From contig CAVYWD010000002.1 of assembly GCA_963772225.1 (NCBI GenBank), forward strand, positions 2,138,872-2,202,871: a DNA stretch of 64,000 nt, in the 5' to 3' direction. A program made the position numbers and the translations under genes. Below are positions 35,170 through 41,419 of this stretch, one piece after another (position 1 is the stretch's first letter; each line of letters starts with the position of its first letter). Below the pieces are notes generated by a model, which was given only the letters and a program-made list of their open reading frames with translations, did no database searches and was not told the DNA's origin. The stretch comes from an uncultured delta proteobacterium (GTDB taxonomy: Bacteria; Myxococcota; Myxococcia; Myxococcales; UBA5297).

Positions 35170-35427
35170 ACGCGCCAGCCGCTCGCGCTGGGCCGCGCTC
35201 GGCGCCGAGAGCCCCGCCAGGTGCTTCGGCGGCGGCGTGGAGGTGATCCACTCTCGGCGGTTTTGGTGATCCAGTCTCGGTTGCGGGGTTGCGGGCGCAG
35301 GCCGTCAGAAGGGTGCGGGCGAATACGGAGGCGGGCGAGCCGTCCCCGCCGTCTACGGATCGCGGAAACGAGGCGCTGTCCCCGCGCTGGACTCGTCAGG
35401 GCCCGGGCCCCATTCCGGAGCGGGATC

Positions 35428-35458
35428 AAAACGCCGACCGCCGAAGGCGGGTCGGGCG
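35428..35458 (-). terminator. intrinsic terminator candidate (minus strand)
   Basis: The minus strand reads GCGCCCGACCCGCC-TTCG-GGCGGTCGGCG followed by TTTTGATCC. This is a 9-10 bp GC stem with one bulge, a UUCG loop and a U4 tract, ~130 nt after the stop at 35588. Confidence 0.5.
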
Positions 35459-35587
35459 CCTCCGGCGGTCAGTCTGTCGCGGTGATGAAGGGCGCCCGGG
35501 CCGCAGGCATTCCGTCGCGGTCGCGGGACGCTCGCCAGCGGAGCCCGCTCTGAGGGCCACACCTGCGGCCCGGGCAGAATCGCGGTA

Positions 35588-35788
35588 TCAGCGCCTCTTG
35601 CGCGAGGCGGGCTGCAGGGGCCCGTAGAGGAGCTGGTTGGGCTCGGTCGCAGTCCAGTGGGCCTCGACCTCGTCGCCGTACTCTTGCCAGAGCGCGACTT
35701 GGAGCTGGCCGCAGAGGTCGAGCAGCCAAGCCGCGGTGGGGCCGTCGAGCGGCGGGAGGTTGAGCGTCAGCGGCGGCCTCTCAATCAT
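35588..35788 (-). CDS. small hypothetical ORF coupled to istB
   Basis: Tail of ORF 35588..36199: MIERPPLTLNLPPLDGPTAAWLLDLCGQLQVALWQEYGDEVEAHWTATEPNQLLYGPLQPASRKRR. Its ATG overlaps the corrected istB stop (ATGATTGA). Confidence 0.4.
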   Translation of the reverse strand: MIERPPLTLNLPPLDGPTAAWLLDLCGQLQVALWQEYGDEVEAHWTATEPNQLLYGPLQPASRKRR

Positions 35789-36609
35789 GGGGTTCCTCCA
35801 CCGGGAGCTCGTGTCCCTGCTCCTTGGCCCGCTGGTGCGCCTGGTGCTGCCGGAAGCTCGGCCCGTCGATGTCGATCCGGATGGAGGTCGCCGCCAGGCG
35901 GTCGAGGACCGCCGCGGCCAGGGTAGCGTCGCCCAGGTACTTGCCCCATGAGGAGAGCCTGATGTTCGAGCGTGATCGCCGTGCTGGCGCTGCCGTGTCG
36001 GCAATCCAAGAGGGTGAAGATCATGTGGGCCGCGGTCGGCTCGTCGTCGCGGCGCTTGAGCTGGCCCAGTCCGACGTCGTCGATCACCAGGAGCGTGGGC
36101 CGACACCAGCTCTTCATCCGCCGCTCGTAGGAGCCGTCGGCCAGGCCGGCGTAGAGGTGGTCGACCAGGTCGACGCACCGGGCGTAGCGCACCATCCACT
36201 CCTGCTCGCAGGCTTGGACCGCGAGAGCCTGCAGGATGTGGCTCTTGCCGGTCCCGCTCTTACCGGTGATCAAGAGGTCCTCGTGCCGCTGGACGAAGGA
36301 GAGCGCGAAGAGCTCCTCGACGAAGCGGCGATCGAGCTTGGGCTGGAAGTCCCAGTCGAAGGCCGCCATGGTCTTGCGGACCTTCATGCCGCTGCCCTTG
36401 ATGCGCCACTCGATGCTGCGCTCGCGCTTGATGGCGGCCGCCGCAGCGAGCAGCTGCTCGGCGGCTTCCAGGTCCGAGGGCTGGTGCTCCTTGACCCAGG
36501 CCAGATAGGCATCGATGGAAAGCCCCCTCAGACCGAGTCGGTCGAGGTGCCGCTCGATGCGCTCCCGGGCTTCGGCGGCGGGGCCTTTGAGGGAGGTGGG
36601 GGCTCGCAT
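35781..36609 (-). CDS. istB: IS21-family helper ATPase IstB, frameshifted as assembled (~35971)
   Basis: ORF 35785..36648; ATG at 36609. Walker A is GKSGTGKSH and Walker B is LLVIDDVG. After STAIT the frame yields LEHQALLMG junk. Shifting by one nt gives the conserved SNIRLSSWGKYLGDATLAAAVLDRLAATSIRIDIDGPSFRQHQA...stop at 35781. Confidence 0.85.
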
Positions 36610-38165
36610 GTCGCTTCTCCTTGGGGCTCGGGGACTGTGCCGCGGCACGGCAGCGCGTCGTACTCGGCGAGGTCGCGCGGCTCGGTGCAGCTCTGGGCGA
36701 CGGCGCTCTTGAGCTTCTTGGCCGAGGCCGCGGCGACGTACTCGTCGAGCCGGCGGCGGTCGGAGCGGGCGTTGAGGATCTTCTCGATGCTGACGTGCTC
36801 GAGAGCGCCGAAGCAGAGCGCGTGCGAGAGCGCCTTGCAGAGCTCGGCGGTGTCGTAGCCCTCGCGCAGCGAAAGGACCTTGCGCGCGTGGTAGCCGGCC
36901 GACCGCGAGTCGCGCCGCTCGAGCGCCGCCAGGTACTCCGCTCCGGGCCCCCCAAGATCCTGGAATGCGCGCCGCAGGTGCTCGAGGTCGGGCCCGCCCT
37001 CGGCGCGCGGGGGCCGATGCCCCGGCAGGATCGACTGCTGCTGCGCGCCGCGAGGCCTGAGCTCGTGCCGTGCCAGGCAGGTCAGGTCCGCTTTGTAGAC
37101 GAAGAGCTCATTCTCGGTGATGCGCACCGGGAGAATCTCGGTGACGTATTCATAGGGCAGGGAATATTCATTGGTCTCCCAGGTCATGAAGCCCTCGAGG
37201 TTGCAGAGCTTGTAGAGCACCCGCGCGGTGTCGTAGGGGTGGCGCGGCAGCGGCCGCAGCAGCGACTGCTCTTCGGCGAAGAGCTCCATCCGCGTGCGCC
37301 GCTTCATCCGCTTGATGGGGCGCAGGTCGGCGATGGTGTCCATCCACCGGGAGAGCTGGGCCTCGAGGTCGGCCAGGTCGCGGAATGAGCGGCCCCGGAA
37401 GAAGCTGAGGGAGAGCTCCCAGAAGCTCCGCTCGACCCGGGGCTTGCGGTTGGGGGCATGGCGCACGGCGACGGCGGAGAATTCGTAATAGGTGGCGAAA
37501 TCGACGAAGCGGGGATTGAGGATCGGCTGGTTGCCTTCCCAGCGCAGCACCACCGGCTTCTGGCTATCGTAGGTGCACCGGCGCGCGGCGCCCTGGAAGC
37601 GCGCGAAGGCGTGGCGGTGGCCGTCCATCAAAGGGTGCAGGCCGTTGCTCTCGAAGAAGCCGAAGTACTTCCGGGTCGAGTAGCGCAGTGCGTATCCGAA
37701 GGCCTGCAGGGTCATGGACGGCGCATGGGTGAATTCCACCGGGTAGGGCGACCAGTCGCACTCGCCCATGTCCCCCGGCACCCGCGGCGGCGTCTGGAGG
37801 CTCGGCTTGGGCGGCAACTTCGGGCGCAGGTTGCTCACCAGGACTTTCACGATGGTGTCGCCGCCTGCGTAGCCATGCTCGTCGCGCAAATGCTCGAAGA
37901 CCCGCTGCGCGGTGATGTCCGGATACTTCTCGAGCAGCTCGGTGATCAGGCTGCGAAAGGGGTCGAGCTTCGAGGCGCGGCGGCGCGAGCCGCGCACCCG
38001 TGGCAGCGCCGAGTGCGCAGTTTCGCGCGCCTCCTGGTGGCTCTTGACGATGCGCCGCACGGTGTTTCGGCTGATGTGCAGGGCCCGCGCGATCGCGCGC
38101 CAAGTCATCCCCTCCTTGTCGAGCTGCACCACGTCGTGGACCAGCTGCGGGTCAAGCGGAAGCAT
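36528..38165 (-). CDS. istA: IS21-family transposase IstA
   Basis: 545-aa ORF. The N-terminal HTH is MTWRAIARALHISRNTVRRIVKSH. The DDE integrase core is colinear with IstA proteins (CDWSPYPVEF...GFFESNGLHPLMDGH...CTYDSQKPVVLRWEG). Confidence 0.9.
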   Translation of the reverse strand: MLPLDPQLVHDVVQLDKEGMTWRAIARALHISRNTVRRIVKSHQEARETAHSALPRVRGSRRRASKLDPFRSLITELLEKYPDITAQRVFEHLRDEHGYAGGDTIVKVLVSNLRPKLPPKPSLQTPPRVPGDMGECDWSPYPVEFTHAPSMTLQAFGYALRYSTRKYFGFFESNGLHPLMDGHRHAFARFQGAARRCTYDSQKPVVLRWEGNQPILNPRFVDFATYYEFSAVAVRHAPNRKPRVERSFWELSLSFFRGRSFRDLADLEAQLSRWMDTIADLRPIKRMKRRTRMELFAEEQSLLRPLPRHPYDTARVLYKLCNLEGFMTWETNEYSLPYEYVTEILPVRITENELFVYKADLTCLARHELRPRGAQQQSILPGHRPPRAEGGPDLEHLRRAFQDLGGPGAEYLAALERRDSRSAGYHARKVLSLREGYDTAELCKALSHALCFGALEHVSIEKILNARSDRRRLDEYVAAASAKKLKSAVAQSCTEPRDLAEYDALPCRGTVPEPQGEATCEPPPPSKAPPPKPGSASSGTSTDSV

Positions 38166-39066
38166 CGGAGGCTCCTGGCGCCCCGAGGCGCGCGTCGAGG
38201 GTCCGGGTCAGGGCGGCCAGCGCACCGCGCAGCTCGACGAGCTCGCGCGAGACCACCTCGCACGCCGGCGCTCCCAAGCTGGCCAGCGACCGCTCCAAGA
38301 GCCGCGCGTGCAGGCGCGTCGAGAGGCGCTTCATCGCCCAGGCGTCCGCGACCATCTGCTCGCCGGGCGTGCGCCGCGGTGCACTGCCCTTGGGGGACTC
38401 GGCGGCCATGGGTGCGCTGGCTCGCTCCAGCAGCGCCGGCCACTCCGCTTCCTGGGCCGCGAGCAGCGAATCGACCAGGCGCGCGGTCTGCCGCGTGGTC
38501 AGCCCTCGTCGGGCTACCACCAGGCCCACAGCGTCCTGGTTGCCGCGCGGCAACCGCGAAAGCTCTCGCACCGCGGTGGCCGACAACAGCCCCAGCCGCA
38601 CATTCGCCGTCAGCTCGTCCGACAGGTCCTCTGCCAAAGCCAGACGCCGACACACCCAGCTCTTGTCCCGCCCGAGCAGAATCGCGATCTGCGGCTGGCT
38701 CACGTGGTCGTCGCGATAGAGGGAGCGCACCAGCCAGCCCTCCTCGAGCTCGCACAGACCCGCCCCGGCGTTGCAGCGCAACAGCCGCACCTTCGCCCCT
38801 GCAGAGTCGACGCCGTGGACCTCGACGCGCAGCTTCGACCACCCAAGCTCGCGCGAGGCGCTCAACCGCTTGAGTCCATCGAAGACCTCCAGCTTCTCGC
38901 CCATTCGAAAGGCCTGCACCGGCGTCAGCTGCCCGAGCTTCGAGAGCGACAGCTGCATCTGCTGCGTGGCCTCGCCCGCGCACAGTCGCACCGCCAAGAG
39001 CGAATCGCCCAGCTCGCTCGGCGCCATCTCGGTGCTCGCGGTCGACACGCCCGTCATGCGCGCCAC
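38152..39066 (-). CDS. ParB/Srx-like N-terminal domain + HTH protein, translationally coupled to istA
   Basis: 304-aa ORF. The ParB-N-like segment is KLEVFDGLKRLSASRELGWSKLRVEVHGV. The HTH is SQPQIAILLGRDKSWVCRRLALA. The stop at 38152 lies 14 nt inside istA (start 38165). Confidence 0.7.
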   Translation of the reverse strand: MARMTGVSTASTEMAPSELGDSLLAVRLCAGEATQQMQLSLSKLGQLTPVQAFRMGEKLEVFDGLKRLSASRELGWSKLRVEVHGVDSAGAKVRLLRCNAGAGLCELEEGWLVRSLYRDDHVSQPQIAILLGRDKSWVCRRLALAEDLSDELTANVRLGLLSATAVRELSRLPRGNQDAVGLVVARRGLTTRQTARLVDSLLAAQEAEWPALLERASAPMAAESPKGSAPRRTPGEQMVADAWAMKRLSTRLHARLLERSLASLGAPACEVVSRELVELRGALAALTRTLDARLGAPGASDASA

Positions 39067-39095
39067 CGTGCGCCCTCACCGAGATCCTTGGCCAT

Positions 39096-39319
39096 CCCGG
39101 CGCGTGACAGGGCCGTTTTTCCCTCTGAGAGAGCTCGAAGCCGGCGCGTGACACGTACCTGCGGTCACCCGCTGCCTGACGGCTCCTCAGAGGGAAAACG
39201 GCGACTCGCCGGCGCCGCCGAACGCCGAAGCATGCGCGTGACACTGCTCCGCTCTGCGCAAAACCCCGAGGTTTCCCCTGCTGCCGCGCCAACTTGGCCG
39301 CCGAAGCCGGCGCGTGACA
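39096..39319. repeat. array of four direct repeats (core GCGCGTGACA; three copies share CGAAGCNNGCGCGTGACA) plus nested inverted repeats
   Basis: Copies end at 39109, 39153, 39243 and 39319. Copies 2 and 4 are 18/18 identical and each is followed by GTCAC 11-12 nt later (GTGACA-N-GTCAC). CCGTTTTTCCCTCTGAG (39113-39129) pairs with CTCAGAGGGAAAACGG (39186-39201). Confidence 0.85.
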
Positions 39320-39331
39320 TCGCTCCACAGG

Positions 39332-39724
39332 TCACGGGCCTGCTCCCGCGCCTGGTGCGCACGAGCACAGCTCACGCAGCGCCTCGGTCAGGGCAGCGCG
39401 AGAAGGCCGCGGAGTCGCCAGCGCCAGCTCGAGCACGTCCTCGAGTCGCGCGCCGAACGAGCCCCCCTGGTCGCCCGCCTCCGGCGGCCCCGCGCCCGAT
39501 CGCAGGGCTCTCTTCTGGGCCCGGCATCGGGCTTGTCGCGCCTGCTCCGCCTTCCGGAACTCCTCAGGCGCCTTCGCTCGACGTTCGCGCGCCTGTCGCT
39601 TGCGTCTCGCCTGGCGACAGGCTTCGCTGCATGCATGCTGCGTCTCCGCCGCGCGAGGATTGGGGGAGTACCAACTCCTGCACTCGCTACACCGCCGACT
39701 GCGGACCTTCTTCCGGGGTCGCAT
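39332..39724 (-). CDS. small basic zinc-ribbon-like protein (hypothetical)
   Basis: 130-aa ORF MRPRKKVRSRRCSECRSWYSPNPRAAETQHACSEACRQARRKRQARERRAK... with a C-x2-C...C-x3-C pattern, followed by an Arg/Lys/Ala-rich helix. Confidence 0.5.
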   Translation of the reverse strand: MRPRKKVRSRRCSECRSWYSPNPRAAETQHACSEACRQARRKRQARERRAKAPEEFRKAEQARQARCRAQKRALRSGAGPPEAGDQGGSFGARLEDVLELALATPRPSRAALTEALRELCSCAPGAGAGP

Positions 39725-39775
39725 CCCTCGACCGTCACGCCGAAGGGGTCCTCCGGATACTTCTCGCCCTGAGAG

Positions 39776-41419
39776 CTACTCCGACTCCCTCGCCTCAACG
39801 ACCGGGTGGATCTCGAGGCCGCCGACAGGTGGATCTCGATCACGCCGCCGCTGAAGGCCAGGTGCTCGCGCTCTCCGAGGAGCTTCGCGCGCCGGGCGAA
39901 ATCGCGCATCAGTGCCCGCGGCAGCGCGGGCCTCGCTCCGGCGAGCTGGAGGAGATGGCAGTACCGATCCAGGAGCTCGTCGTCGTCGAGCCAGGCTGCG
40001 AACTCCGGGAAGAGCCGCCGGCCCGCCCCGGGCTCGGTCCCCGCGAGCTGGGCGCTCAGCGTCCGCGCCTGCGCCGGCGCGCGATTGACCAGGGCGAGAA
40101 CGGCGTCGAGCCGCGCCAGGCGCGAAGCCGGCGCCTCCTGGGCGTCGGAGCTCGCCGCGAGCAGTGCCCGCGCAAACAGCGCCAGCTCCCGGTCGCGTCC
40201 GGCAGCCTCCGTCCGGAAGATTCGACGGCGGCAACTTGAGCTCCACGCCGCTCGCCCGAAGCCGTGGGGCGAGGTCCAGCACCCAGCGCCCCCAGGCGCG
40301 CAGGGCGTCCACGTCCTCGATGTCCCGGAGTCCTTCCAGCCTCTTGGCCGCCGCCAGCTTCCCGAGCAGCTCGATTTCCAGCCCGCGCGCGAGGAGCTTC
40401 TGAGCGGCGGCGCGGTCATGGGGATTGAGCTTGAGCCGCAACAGCAGCAGCCCCTGCGCCATGGTCAAAGGCGCGCTCTCCGCCTGGGCGTTCGGCGACG
40501 ACAGCTCTCGCAGGACGAAGTGCACGTCGTCGGGCGTCAGCGCTCCGCTCGACTCGGGCAGAAAAAGAAGGGCGAGCAGCGCCAGGGCGCGCTCGAGCCG
40601 CCGGACGTAGTCGGGCTGCCGCGTCGAGCCGATCCGCGCCAGCTGGAGGGCGCCCGCGACCTCCACGGCCTCCGCGAGAATGGGCGGGAGCTCGCGGAGC
40701 TCCGCTGGGGTGTGCAGCGCAGCGCCGGGCCACGCCACGGCCTCGGCGAGAACCTCGTAGATGACCCGATCCCTGGCGCGGCCTGCGAAGCGCTGAGCGC
40801 GGGGCCTCAGCGTCGCGATGAACCCGTCGAGGACTTCCGCCGGAAGATCCGACTTCGCTCCGCGCTCCCCTCGGAACCGGGCGGCGATGGCCTCCACTCG
40901 CCGCTGCGCCGTCCTTCGCCGCTCCCGAGCCCAGGCGATCGATCGGGCCTTCCAGGCTGCGAGGGCGCGGCCCGCCTCCTCACCGCGGAGCGCCTCGACC
41001 AACTCGAGAGGCCCAGCAAGTCCTGGCGCAGACCGGAGCCTCGCCGAGAGCGCGTCGATCTGCGACTGCCGGCGCGCGAGCGTCGCGGCGTCCAACGATC
41101 CGTAGCGCCGGAGCGCCCGCAACTCGGCGGCCAGCTCCCGGAGATCGGGGTTCTGCACGAGGACTCTGAGGTCGCACTGAGCCGCGGCGAGAAAGCGAGG
41201 CGCGACCAGCGTCGGCGGGCGCTTCAGCTCGCAGAAGCGTTCCAGCGCCGCGGCCGAAACCCCGCCCTGCTCCCAGACGGCGTCGAGCAGAGCCGCCGGC
41301 AGCGAGATCGCGCGGACCTGGACCAGGTGCAATCCCTCGAGACAAGCGAGCGGTGCGCCCTCGAGCAGCGACAGCCGCAGCAGGGTTCTCTTGAGGTCGG
41401 CAACGGCGTCCTTACTCAT
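39776..41419 (-). CDS. large hypothetical protein, frameshifted as assembled (~40220, possibly again near the 3' end)
   Basis: The first ~400 codons of ORF 39776..41419 are protein-like (MSKDAVADLKRTLLRLSLLEGAPLACLEGLHLVQV...). After ...RASGVELKLPPS, the sensible sequence continues in the frame of ORF 39388..40419 (IFRTEAAGRDRELALFARALLAASSDAQ...FPEFAAWLDDDELLDRYCHLLQLAG...). No family is recognised. Confidence 0.5.
   Translation of the reverse strand: MSKDAVADLKRTLLRLSLLEGAPLACLEGLHLVQVRAISLPAALLDAVWEQGGVSAAALERFCELKRPPTLVAPRFLAAAQCDLRVLVQNPDLRELAAELRALRRYGSLDAATLARRQSQIDALSARLRSAPGLAGPLELVEALRGEEAGRALAAWKARSIAWARERRRTAQRRVEAIAARFRGERGAKSDLPAEVLDGFIATLRPRAQRFAGRARDRVIYEVLAEAVAWPGAALHTPAELRELPPILAEAVEVAGALQLARIGSTRQPDYVRRLERALALLALLFLPESSGALTPDDVHFVLRELSSPNAQAESAPLTMAQGLLLLRLKLNPHDRAAAQKLLARGLEIELLGKLAAAKRLEGLRDIEDVDALRAWGRWVLDLAPRLRASGVELKLPPSNLPDGGCRTRPGAGAVCAGTARGELRRPGGAGFAPGAARRRSRPGQSRAGAGADAERPARGDRARGGPAALPGVRSLARRRRAPGSVLPSPPARRSEARAAAGTDARFRPAREAPRRARAPGLQRRRDRDPPVGGLEIHPVVEARESE

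Follow-up and report, generated by a model that had tools for sequence, protein, structure and literature searches.

The 64,000-nucleotide (nt) stretch analysed here, called the window throughout, spans positions 2,138,872 to 2,202,871 of contig CAVYWD010000002.1 in GCA_963772225.1, the genome assembly of an uncultured delta proteobacterium of the Myxococcota. Between positions 35224 and 39856, on the minus strand, the window holds a single 4,633-bp copy of an IS21-family transposable element, which lies inside a host open reading frame (ORF) and is bordered by an 8-bp target-site duplication (TSD). The mobile unit has a fixed layout of five genes, encoding a Zn-ribbon protein, a ParB-like protein, the DDE transposase IstA, its AAA+ helper IstB and a small trailing protein, and an array of four direct sites precedes the ParB-like gene. 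In the reading direction of the element, its features are:

39857..39864, minus strand: left TSD copy, CACCTGGC, an identical 8-mer directly abutting the element end
39799..39856, minus strand: left terminal inverted repeat (TIR), starting CTTCAGCGGCGGCGTG, with GAGATCCAC sub-repeats at 39829-39837 and 39806-39814
39332..39724, minus strand: ORF of 130 amino acids (aa) with a Zn-ribbon (CxxC...CxxxC) and a basic helical region
39092..39319, minus strand: array of four direct 18-nt sites, TGTCACGCGCCGGCTTCG, at 39302-39319, 39226-39243, 39136-39153 and 39092-39109
38152..39066, minus strand: ParB-like gene, with a ParB/Srx-type N-domain, a helix-turn-helix (HTH) and a helical C-terminus
36528..38165, minus strand: istA, DDE transposase of 545 aa, with a 14-nt overlap with the ParB-like gene
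35781..36609, minus strand: istB, AAA+ helper, with a 1-nt insertion near 35971 in the window copy
35588..35788, minus strand: small ORF of 66 aa, whose ATG overlaps the corrected istB stop (35781-35783), ATGATTGA
35434..35472, minus strand: GC-rich terminator-like hairpin (16-bp stem, -35 kcal/mol, z -3.0), then GUUUUG
35224..35281, plus strand: right TIR, reading inward CTTCGGCGGCGGCGTGGAG, with GTGATCCAC at 35243-35251 and GTGATCCAG at 35266-35274
35216..35223, minus strand: right TSD copy, CACCTGGC, an identical 8-mer directly abutting the element end

The ends of the element are set by other copies and by the window itself. Similarity to the related locus L057 (84%) spans exactly 39856 to 35223/35224 and then stops, and for L059 (94%) the match likewise sets in exactly at 39856, the DNA beyond being unrelated. 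Imperfect TIRs of ~58 nt lie at these limits, with left and right ends identical at 15 of the 16 terminal nt and 23 of the terminal 30. The perfect 8-bp TSD, CACCTGGC on the minus strand, abuts both ends, showing that integration has taken place. An earlier reading of the same DNA, the original prediction, had described a ~3.9-kb IS21 derivative at 35377-39319 with four genes, TG...CA termini and no clean target duplication, in which the TGTCACGCGC repeats were the IstA-binding repeats of the left end. Those repeats do begin with TGT, and their multiplicity resembles that of IS21 terminal repeats. However, no inverted copy of them lies at the opposite end or anywhere else in the 64-kb window, and homology with independent copies runs 537 bp past the outermost repeat and 153 bp past 35377, where TGTCCCCGCGCTGG is present without being an end. 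The shorter element is refuted by these homology limits together with the TSD and TIRs at 35224/39856, and we see practically no chance that it is correct. Its supposed terminal repeats are the internal array, which is conserved over the family, and the Zn-ribbon ORF at 39332-39724 is a fifth gene that had been overlooked.

Across the family, each end carries two sub-repeats with GATCCAC ~23 nt apart, within the terminal consensus CTTC(A/G)GCGGCGG...GATCCAC x2, and we regard these as putative IstA-binding sites. Target duplications of IS21-family elements range from 4 to 8 bp, and besides the window copy, a clean 8-bp TSD, CCCTGACA, borders the element in L112 and a 6-bp one, CCGTTG, that in L003. 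A relative found via its ParB-like protein (L001-L010) occurs as identical 4,515-bp copies in differing flanks, with perfect TIRs, CTTCGGCGCCGGTCTCAAACTGATCCACT. In every compared copy the termini read 5'-CTTC(A/G)GCGG...CCGC(C/T)GAAG-3', and the neighbouring flank base is variable. The 3' end is therefore ...AG (CTTC(A/G)G...C(T/C)GAAG) and not the 3'-CA of TG...CA ends, the signature end for IS5376 (PMC10122671), which is typical of IS21 elements rather than strictly defining.

When the element and one TSD copy are removed, the flanks join as one open frame, ...AKLLGEREHLA followed across the junction by GLSAPSAAQRERLARVDQLL..., so the element interrupts a host ORF. Support for the empty site is this continuity of the reading frame. 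The interrupted ORF matches no Pfam family, and a search for uninterrupted homologues gave four distant matches, none aligning cleanly across the junction. Upstream of the insertion, the host gene (window 39388-41419, minus strand) is split over the overlapping ORFs 39776-41419 and 39388-40419, which suggests a second frameshift or sequencing errors there.

The two transposition proteins place the element firmly in the IS21 family. IstA scores 199.2 bits against NCBIfam NF033546 (cut-off 160) and aligns to the IS5376 IstA (PDB 8q4d, E 5e-32), and its DDE triad is intact, with D137, D200 and E245 at the positions of IS5376 D124, D187 and E233. In istB, the 1-nt insertion near 35971 is evident from comparison with the intact genes of L057 and L058 (ATCACGCTCGAAC versus ATCACT-TCGAAT), in agreement with the frame correction made originally. 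Pfam IstB_IS21 (PF01695) matches either side of the break, with 127.7 bits for the N-terminal part and 34.9 for the C-terminal part, and because of the frameshift NCBIfam NF038214 reaches only 140.9 bits against a cut-off of 200. Corrected IstB has 274 aa and intact Walker A (GKSGTGKS) and Walker B (LLVIDD) motifs, and the istB genes of relatives are intact. The insertion is either a real inactivating mutation, in which case the window copy is defective and dependent on IstB from another copy, or an assembly error.

Like prototypical IS21 and IS5376, the element has a DDE IstA with an N-terminal HTH, an AAA+ IstB encoded directly downstream, composite TIRs of two sub-repeats per end and a short target duplication. 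Those prototypes have two genes in ~2-2.5 kb, whereas this element has five conserved ORFs in 4.6 kb and an internal four-site array, so istA and istB are not its sole genes. In prototypical IS21, IstA binds the end sub-repeats and synapses the ends, and IstB captures the target and activates IstA (PMC10122671, PMC11208146). By analogy, IstA of this element would bind both GATCCAC sub-repeats of each end and synapse the ends, and its IstB would capture target DNA and activate IstA. The window copy, being frameshifted in istB, would need the IstB of another copy to move.

The ParB-like ORF at 38152-39066 (minus strand) was borne out by the ORF scan as originally read, with 304 aa from a GTG at 39066 and its final 14 nt inside the istA ORF at 36528-38165; an ATG at 39057, which gives 301 aa as in the database protein P0001, is the more likely start. 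Related loci were sampled by similarity to the ParB-like protein and not to IstA, 45 from species-representative genomes and 80 from metagenomes, where a scan returned at least 578 confirmed matches. The linkage count covers 120 loci in which the ParB-like gene is full-length and is followed by at least 500 nt of sequence. IstA is encoded immediately downstream in 118 of them, down to 40% ParB identity, so that the adjacency is recurrent, as had been proposed, and not an accident of this locus. An element end between the ParB-like gene and istA, which would have separated the two, was looked for and found in none of the copies examined. These comparisons indicate that the ParB-like gene is integral to the mobile unit, and the relatives support the original view of an IS21-family unit in which this gene is coupled to istA. 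The original prediction knew of no description of this architecture, and we found none in the full-text literature of an IS21 element with a ParB-like gene or extra ORFs, Myxococcus included (ISfinder was not covered).

All genome matches are metagenome-assembled genomes (MAGs), and the ParB-like family comprises 159 representative clusters at E < 1e-30. The long contigs, from 12 kb to 3.3 Mb, all belong to Myxococcota MAGs (Myxococcales, Anaeromyxobacter, Polyangiales, Kofleriaceae and Nannocystis); where another phylum is assigned, the contig is 2-8 kb long and its binning unreliable. Publicly, family members carry the label 'ParB/RepB/Spo0J family partition protein' (L012, L014, L020, L025-L031, L036, L038, L039 and L044), and many lie on 2-6 kb contigs binned as Betaproteobacteria, Chloroflexota, Gemmatimonas or Acidobacteriota. 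Both the partition label and the binning outside Myxococcota are probably artefacts of mis-annotation and mis-binning of a repeated element. Look-ups by exact sequence of the ParB-like protein of the window, of P0001 and of IstA gave no contig, and copy number within the source genome is read from cluster metadata only. These place the exact IstA of the window on four contigs and at least four IstA variants more than 90% identical on one 3.05-Mb contig, which fits a multi-copy, recently active element. Two further observations concern the history of individual copies. The 94%-identical copy in L059 (5773-7174) adjoins two tyrosine-recombinase (Phage_integrase) genes and its istA is called as short fragments, so it may sit in another mobile element and be degraded. 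Between the window element and L057, synonymous divergence (dS) is mosaic, falling from 1.25 in the Zn-ribbon gene through 0.49 in the ParB-like gene to 0.21 in istA, which suggests recombination between element lineages.

By fold and architecture, the ParB-like protein is a member of the ParB/Noc/KorB superfamily. Pfam matches HTH_ParB (27.5 bits, cut-off 22.6) and KorB (23.5 bits, cut-off 22.3); ParB_N (PF02195) gives no match to the window protein at E <= 0.01, and some homologues have a precomputed match to it. Searched against the PDB, a profile of 22 family members aligned over residues 32-199 with the structures of M. xanthus ParB, Noc and Spo0J (E ~4e-8). An AlphaFold2 model with a mean predicted local distance difference test score of 67 retrieved ParB (7bnk, E 7e-11 over 194 columns) and KorB (8qa8, E 7e-6) in Foldseek, so that all three approaches agree with the ParB N-domain plus HTH first read from the translation. 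For the C-terminal domain a helical hairpin is predicted, with low model confidence. Chromosomal ParB/Spo0J and Noc are the best sequence and structure matches to residues ~30-200, which hold the N-domain and HTH, at identities of 17-23%; the NCBIfam models nucleoid_noc (40 bits, cut-off 315) and parB_part (19 bits, cut-off 58) stay below threshold. Unlike these chromosomal proteins, the ParB-like protein is encoded in a transposon, has no ParA partner (IstB is the sole ATPase among the element ORFs), has no evident palindromic parS and has degenerate motifs for cytidine triphosphate (CTP). Within the family, the HTH motif KSWVCRRL is invariant, and the ratio of nonsynonymous to synonymous substitution rates (dN/dS) of the gene is 0.42.

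The four direct repeats of the original prediction directly precede the ParB-like gene, 537-765 bp from the left element end; they were confirmed to end at 39109, 39153, 39243 and 39319, against a chance expectation of 0.47 matches per window. Among 112 related elements, 102 have four sites with a GTC[AC]C core, placed at approximately -280, -200, -110 and -42 relative to the ParB start; their modal spacing is 79/90/69 nt, and that in the subgroup of the window 76/90/44-45 nt. The site consensus is TGTCACGCGCC(A/G)(C/G)C(C/T)TCG, with TGTCAC(G)CGCC direct sites. Elements differ in the site variant that they carry (CGC, GGG, AGG, TGA, GAG, or CCCTCG replacing CACGCG), and all sites within one element share one variant. 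Such concerted change suggests either that the sites co-evolve with a specific binding partner or that the repeats are homogenised. No consistent copy of the site motif occurs elsewhere in the elements on either strand, ends included.

A second motif accompanies the sites in some elements. About one third of the elements have an inverted G[GT]GAC box at a constant distance before sites 2-4, and in L012, L014, L017, L020 and L025, for example, it reads TGGGAC(A), an approximate inverse of the site core that precedes site 2 by 13-14 nt, site 3 by 13 or 24 nt and site 4 by 3-5 nt. The window copy has only a GGTGAC box, before site 3. By its placement, the TGGGAC(A) motif may reflect two binding specificities or asymmetric dyads. 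RNA pairing between boxes and sites was also considered: the box stays GGGAC whatever the site core, and this missing compensatory change argues against pairing. Rfam had no match when pairing of the array RNA was examined. The window array also contains a 32-nt inverted repeat (72% complementary, 39098-39129 and 39186-39217) that brackets site 3, and a terminator-like hairpin between sites 2 and 3 (39199-39220, then TTTTCCCTCT); neither is obviously kept in L002.

IS21 relatives without a ParB-like gene offer a comparison for which parts of the element belong together. The nearest annotated IstA proteins are ~31-32% identical, at most 32%, and come from Burkholderia, Paraburkholderia, Caballeronia and Mesorhizobium plasmids. 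Two such elements were examined, L140 (2099-5519, Burkholderia thailandensis p2002721643) and L141 (Mesorhizobium huakuii plasmid). Like the window element, both have a Cys-rich Zn-finger ORF upstream of istA, with a shared R-C-x2-C-R...Q-x2-C-x3-C pattern, and an ORF of 71-73 aa that overlaps the istB stop by 4 nt. Unlike it, they have neither a ParB-like gene nor an array of three or more copies, and their Zn-finger ORF abuts istA directly. L140 is ~3.4 kb long and ends TGTGAACGCCGG...ACA, the usual TGT...ACA type, where the window element ends ...GAAG-3' and has 4,633 bp. In BLASTP comparisons of L140 and L141 with the window, the Zn proteins reach E 0.77, which is not significant, and the small ORFs 0.003-0.1, which is weak. 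Since the Zn-ribbon gene and the trailing ORF occur in these ParB-less relatives, they are probably older features of an IS21 subgroup, and the same comparison suggests that the ParB-like gene and the array joined the element as a module in the Myxococcota lineage. In the plasmid gene tables, the Cys-rich ORF (L140 2487-2954; L141 upstream of 3004) is missing and the ORF overlapping the istB stop (L140 5200-5415; L141 5266-5487) is listed as 'hypothetical protein'. It appears that the accessory ORFs of this IS21 subgroup are under-annotated.

In relatives that have a Zn-finger ORF and IstA and lack a ParB-like gene, the array is missing too, so its presence follows the ParB-like gene rather than either of the other two. 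KorB is a ParB-fold regulator of mobile elements, and since the array lies directly upstream of the ParB-like gene and ParB-fold regulators of this kind are known, the protein may play a KorB-like role. It would be the site-specific DNA-binding regulator of the element itself, its KSWVCRRL HTH binding the four-site array beside its own gene. Bound there, it would set expression of the operon of the ParB-like gene, istA, istB and the trailing ORF (orf5), and so keep transposase output low or conditional. We regard this regulation of the parB-istA-istB operon as an evenly balanced proposition, and as the one that we favor.

Known systems show how such a regulator could work and where this one departs from them. 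ParB-like regulators of mobile elements include BisD (PMC12409273) and VirB (PMC10653881). Along with KorB of RK2, VirB of Shigella pINV and BisD of ICEclc resemble the window protein in having a ParB N-domain and HTH, in being encoded by mobile elements and in the presence of specific sites adjoining regulated genes; the window protein is without a ParA partner. They are CTP-binding clamps that act on palindromic or inverted-repeat sites, whereas here the sites are direct repeats and the GERR and ENxxR residues are largely replaced. Nor are those regulators known to be linked to a DDE transposase, as the ParB-like gene is through its coupling to istA.

Several observations weigh against a ParB-like regulator acting at the array. 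Binding of the array by this protein is putative, its support being comparative, and the Zn-ribbon protein and IstA are further DNA-binding candidates. The sites are direct repeats and not palindromes, and dimeric ParB, KorB and Noc usually bind palindromes. A few elements with an intact ParB-like gene show no recognizable array. Mutual information between the site variants and the residues of three proteins (ParB-like, IstA and Zn-ribbon), together with a visual check of the HTH regions, revealed no covariation with the ParB-like HTH residues; the signal that arises for the Zn protein is a trivial one, since in many elements its gene shares sequence with the sites. A scan of this copy for sigma-70-like promoters, and a relaxed one covering 87 relatives, gave no consistent candidate in the array or its vicinity, which leaves an operator role unanchored. 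Finally, the canonical CTP motifs (box I QPR, box II GERRxRA, box III ENxxR) are not kept: box II has become D-G-[LFV]-K-R-x-R-A-A, with the Glu lost and the first Arg changed to Lys, box III reads RCNAG in the near clade and ELHDG, with nothing left of ENxxR, in the distant one, and box I is unalignable. The loss of these pocket residues makes a CTP-driven clamp mechanism doubtful, and the protein may instead be a plain operator-binding or bridging protein.

The missing covariation raises the question of whether another protein of the element occupies the array. The sites could be bound by the Zn-ribbon protein or by the N-terminal HTH of IstA, leaving the ParB-like protein, for instance, as a ParB/Srx-type nuclease or nucleoside triphosphatase that processes DNA ends. 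The Zn-ribbon ORF is conserved and basic and adjoins or overlaps the array. Of 112 related loci, 97 have an ORF with the CxxC..CxxxC pattern upstream of the ParB-like gene, and the dN/dS of the window ORF against L057 is 0.28. Its protein had four matches in a database search, with weak similarity to the N-terminus of Pfam NinG (sub-threshold) and to HNH and NinG/Rap families in PHROGs (E 0.0035-0.0046). The TGGGAC(A) motif before sites 2-4 in about a third of elements also hints at two specificities, and we take the DGxKR motif of the ParB-like protein to resemble the DGxxR signature of non-partition ParB/Srx proteins. However, the relatives that have a Zn-finger ORF and IstA and no ParB-like gene have no array, the best matches of the ParB-like protein are the DNA-binding proteins ParB, Noc and KorB, HTH included, and nuclease catalytic residues are not evident in it. 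We judge it unlikely that the Zn-ribbon protein or IstA is the array-binding factor.

The position of the array would also fit a different role for it, in transposition itself. In phage Mu, the early region encodes a DDE transposase, A, and an AAA+ partner, B; small regulator genes come before them, and so does an operator/enhancer of several sites, which lies several hundred bp in from the left end and is bound by repressor and by MuA. The window element likewise combines a DDE and AAA+ pair with a site array inside the left end; this is a likeness of organization, drawn by analogy only, as is any enhancer role of the array. On such a model, the ParB-like protein and the array would be a cofactor module for transposition and not a transcriptional regulator, acting like the Mu enhancer or in target immunity in cis. 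The protein might shape or bridge DNA and so help or license synapsis by IstA, or it might spread outward from the array and exclude IstB from adjacent DNA. Bridging and spreading on DNA are known activities of ParB-family proteins, and the array keeps both its place 537-765 bp inside the left end and its spacing. The overlap or abutment of the ParB-like gene with istA suggests co-production, the ParB-like/IstA linkage is near-obligate over a diverged family, and the IstA/IstB organization is related to that of MuA/MuB (PMC10122671). Set against these points, ParB-less IS21 elements, the closest annotated relatives included, transpose without such a module, array-like sites are absent near the right end and elsewhere, and the residues of the CTP pocket for clamp-type spreading are degenerate. 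We consider a cofactor module possible and rather less probable than a KorB-like regulator. The same tentative standing applies to its broader form, in which the ParB-like protein and array would be a third component of the IstA/IstB system that directly gates transpososome assembly or target choice, beyond mere repression of a promoter.

Passenger genes are known in IS elements, and the ParB-like gene could in principle be cargo that acts on the host, as a regulator or anti-silencing factor, and has no role in transposition. Its product matches no PADLOC model of anti-phage defence, which is compatible with such a host-directed function. Cargo normally varies between related IS elements, however, whereas the position, orientation and istA coupling of this gene are fixed and the cis array is conserved over 40-100% protein identity. 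In the sampled loci the family is found only beside IstA, and it has no match in plasmid or phage collections. Cargo is for these reasons the most improbable of the roles considered here for the ParB-like protein, and we give it very little weight beside an element-specific regulator.

At the 3' end of istB, sequence read-out confirmed that the corrected stop overlaps the ATG of a 66-codon ORF (ATGATTGA). L057 and L013 have homologues at the equivalent place, with 78% and 60% aa identity. In other elements an ORF of 96-112 aa follows istB, usually with an ATGA overlap of the istB stop. The dN/dS of the small ORF is 0.32 against L013, 0.3-0.65 in more divergent comparisons and 1.07 against L057, the closest pair; taken together, the comparisons indicate that it is probably coding. 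It has no match in Pfam, NCBIfam, PADLOC or PHROGs. The hairpin with a U-tract noted originally is real. It lies in non-coding DNA (35405-35576) that separates the small ORF from the right end. Compared with the equivalent part of the distant L002, this stretch shows 77% identity and is as conserved as the coding regions are; no Rfam family matches it.

IS21 serves at present as a structural model for the control of a DDE transposase by an AAA+ ATPase, and ParB-family proteins such as KorB, VirB, BisD and Noc are increasingly recognized as regulators beyond partition. The widespread IS21 lineage of the Myxococcota unites both topics: fixed within its element are a gene for a ParB-like protein with a four-site array that looks cognate to it, a Zn-ribbon gene and a small ORF. 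Its departures from known IS21 elements are its five genes, the internal array and the ...GAAG-3' termini. For annotation, the finding means that genes labelled "ParB/Spo0J partition protein" in MAGs are here transposon genes, and that the element breaks assemblies into contigs of ~2-6 kb. At ~4.6 kb, the element is a compact system for asking what a ParB-fold protein does in a transposon, be it autoregulation, synapsis or immunity. If it is true that the ParB-like protein gates IstA and IstB, this would be a previously undescribed control of a DDE-transposase/AAA+ system, and the element may reveal a new mode of control in a transposition machine that is already well studied.

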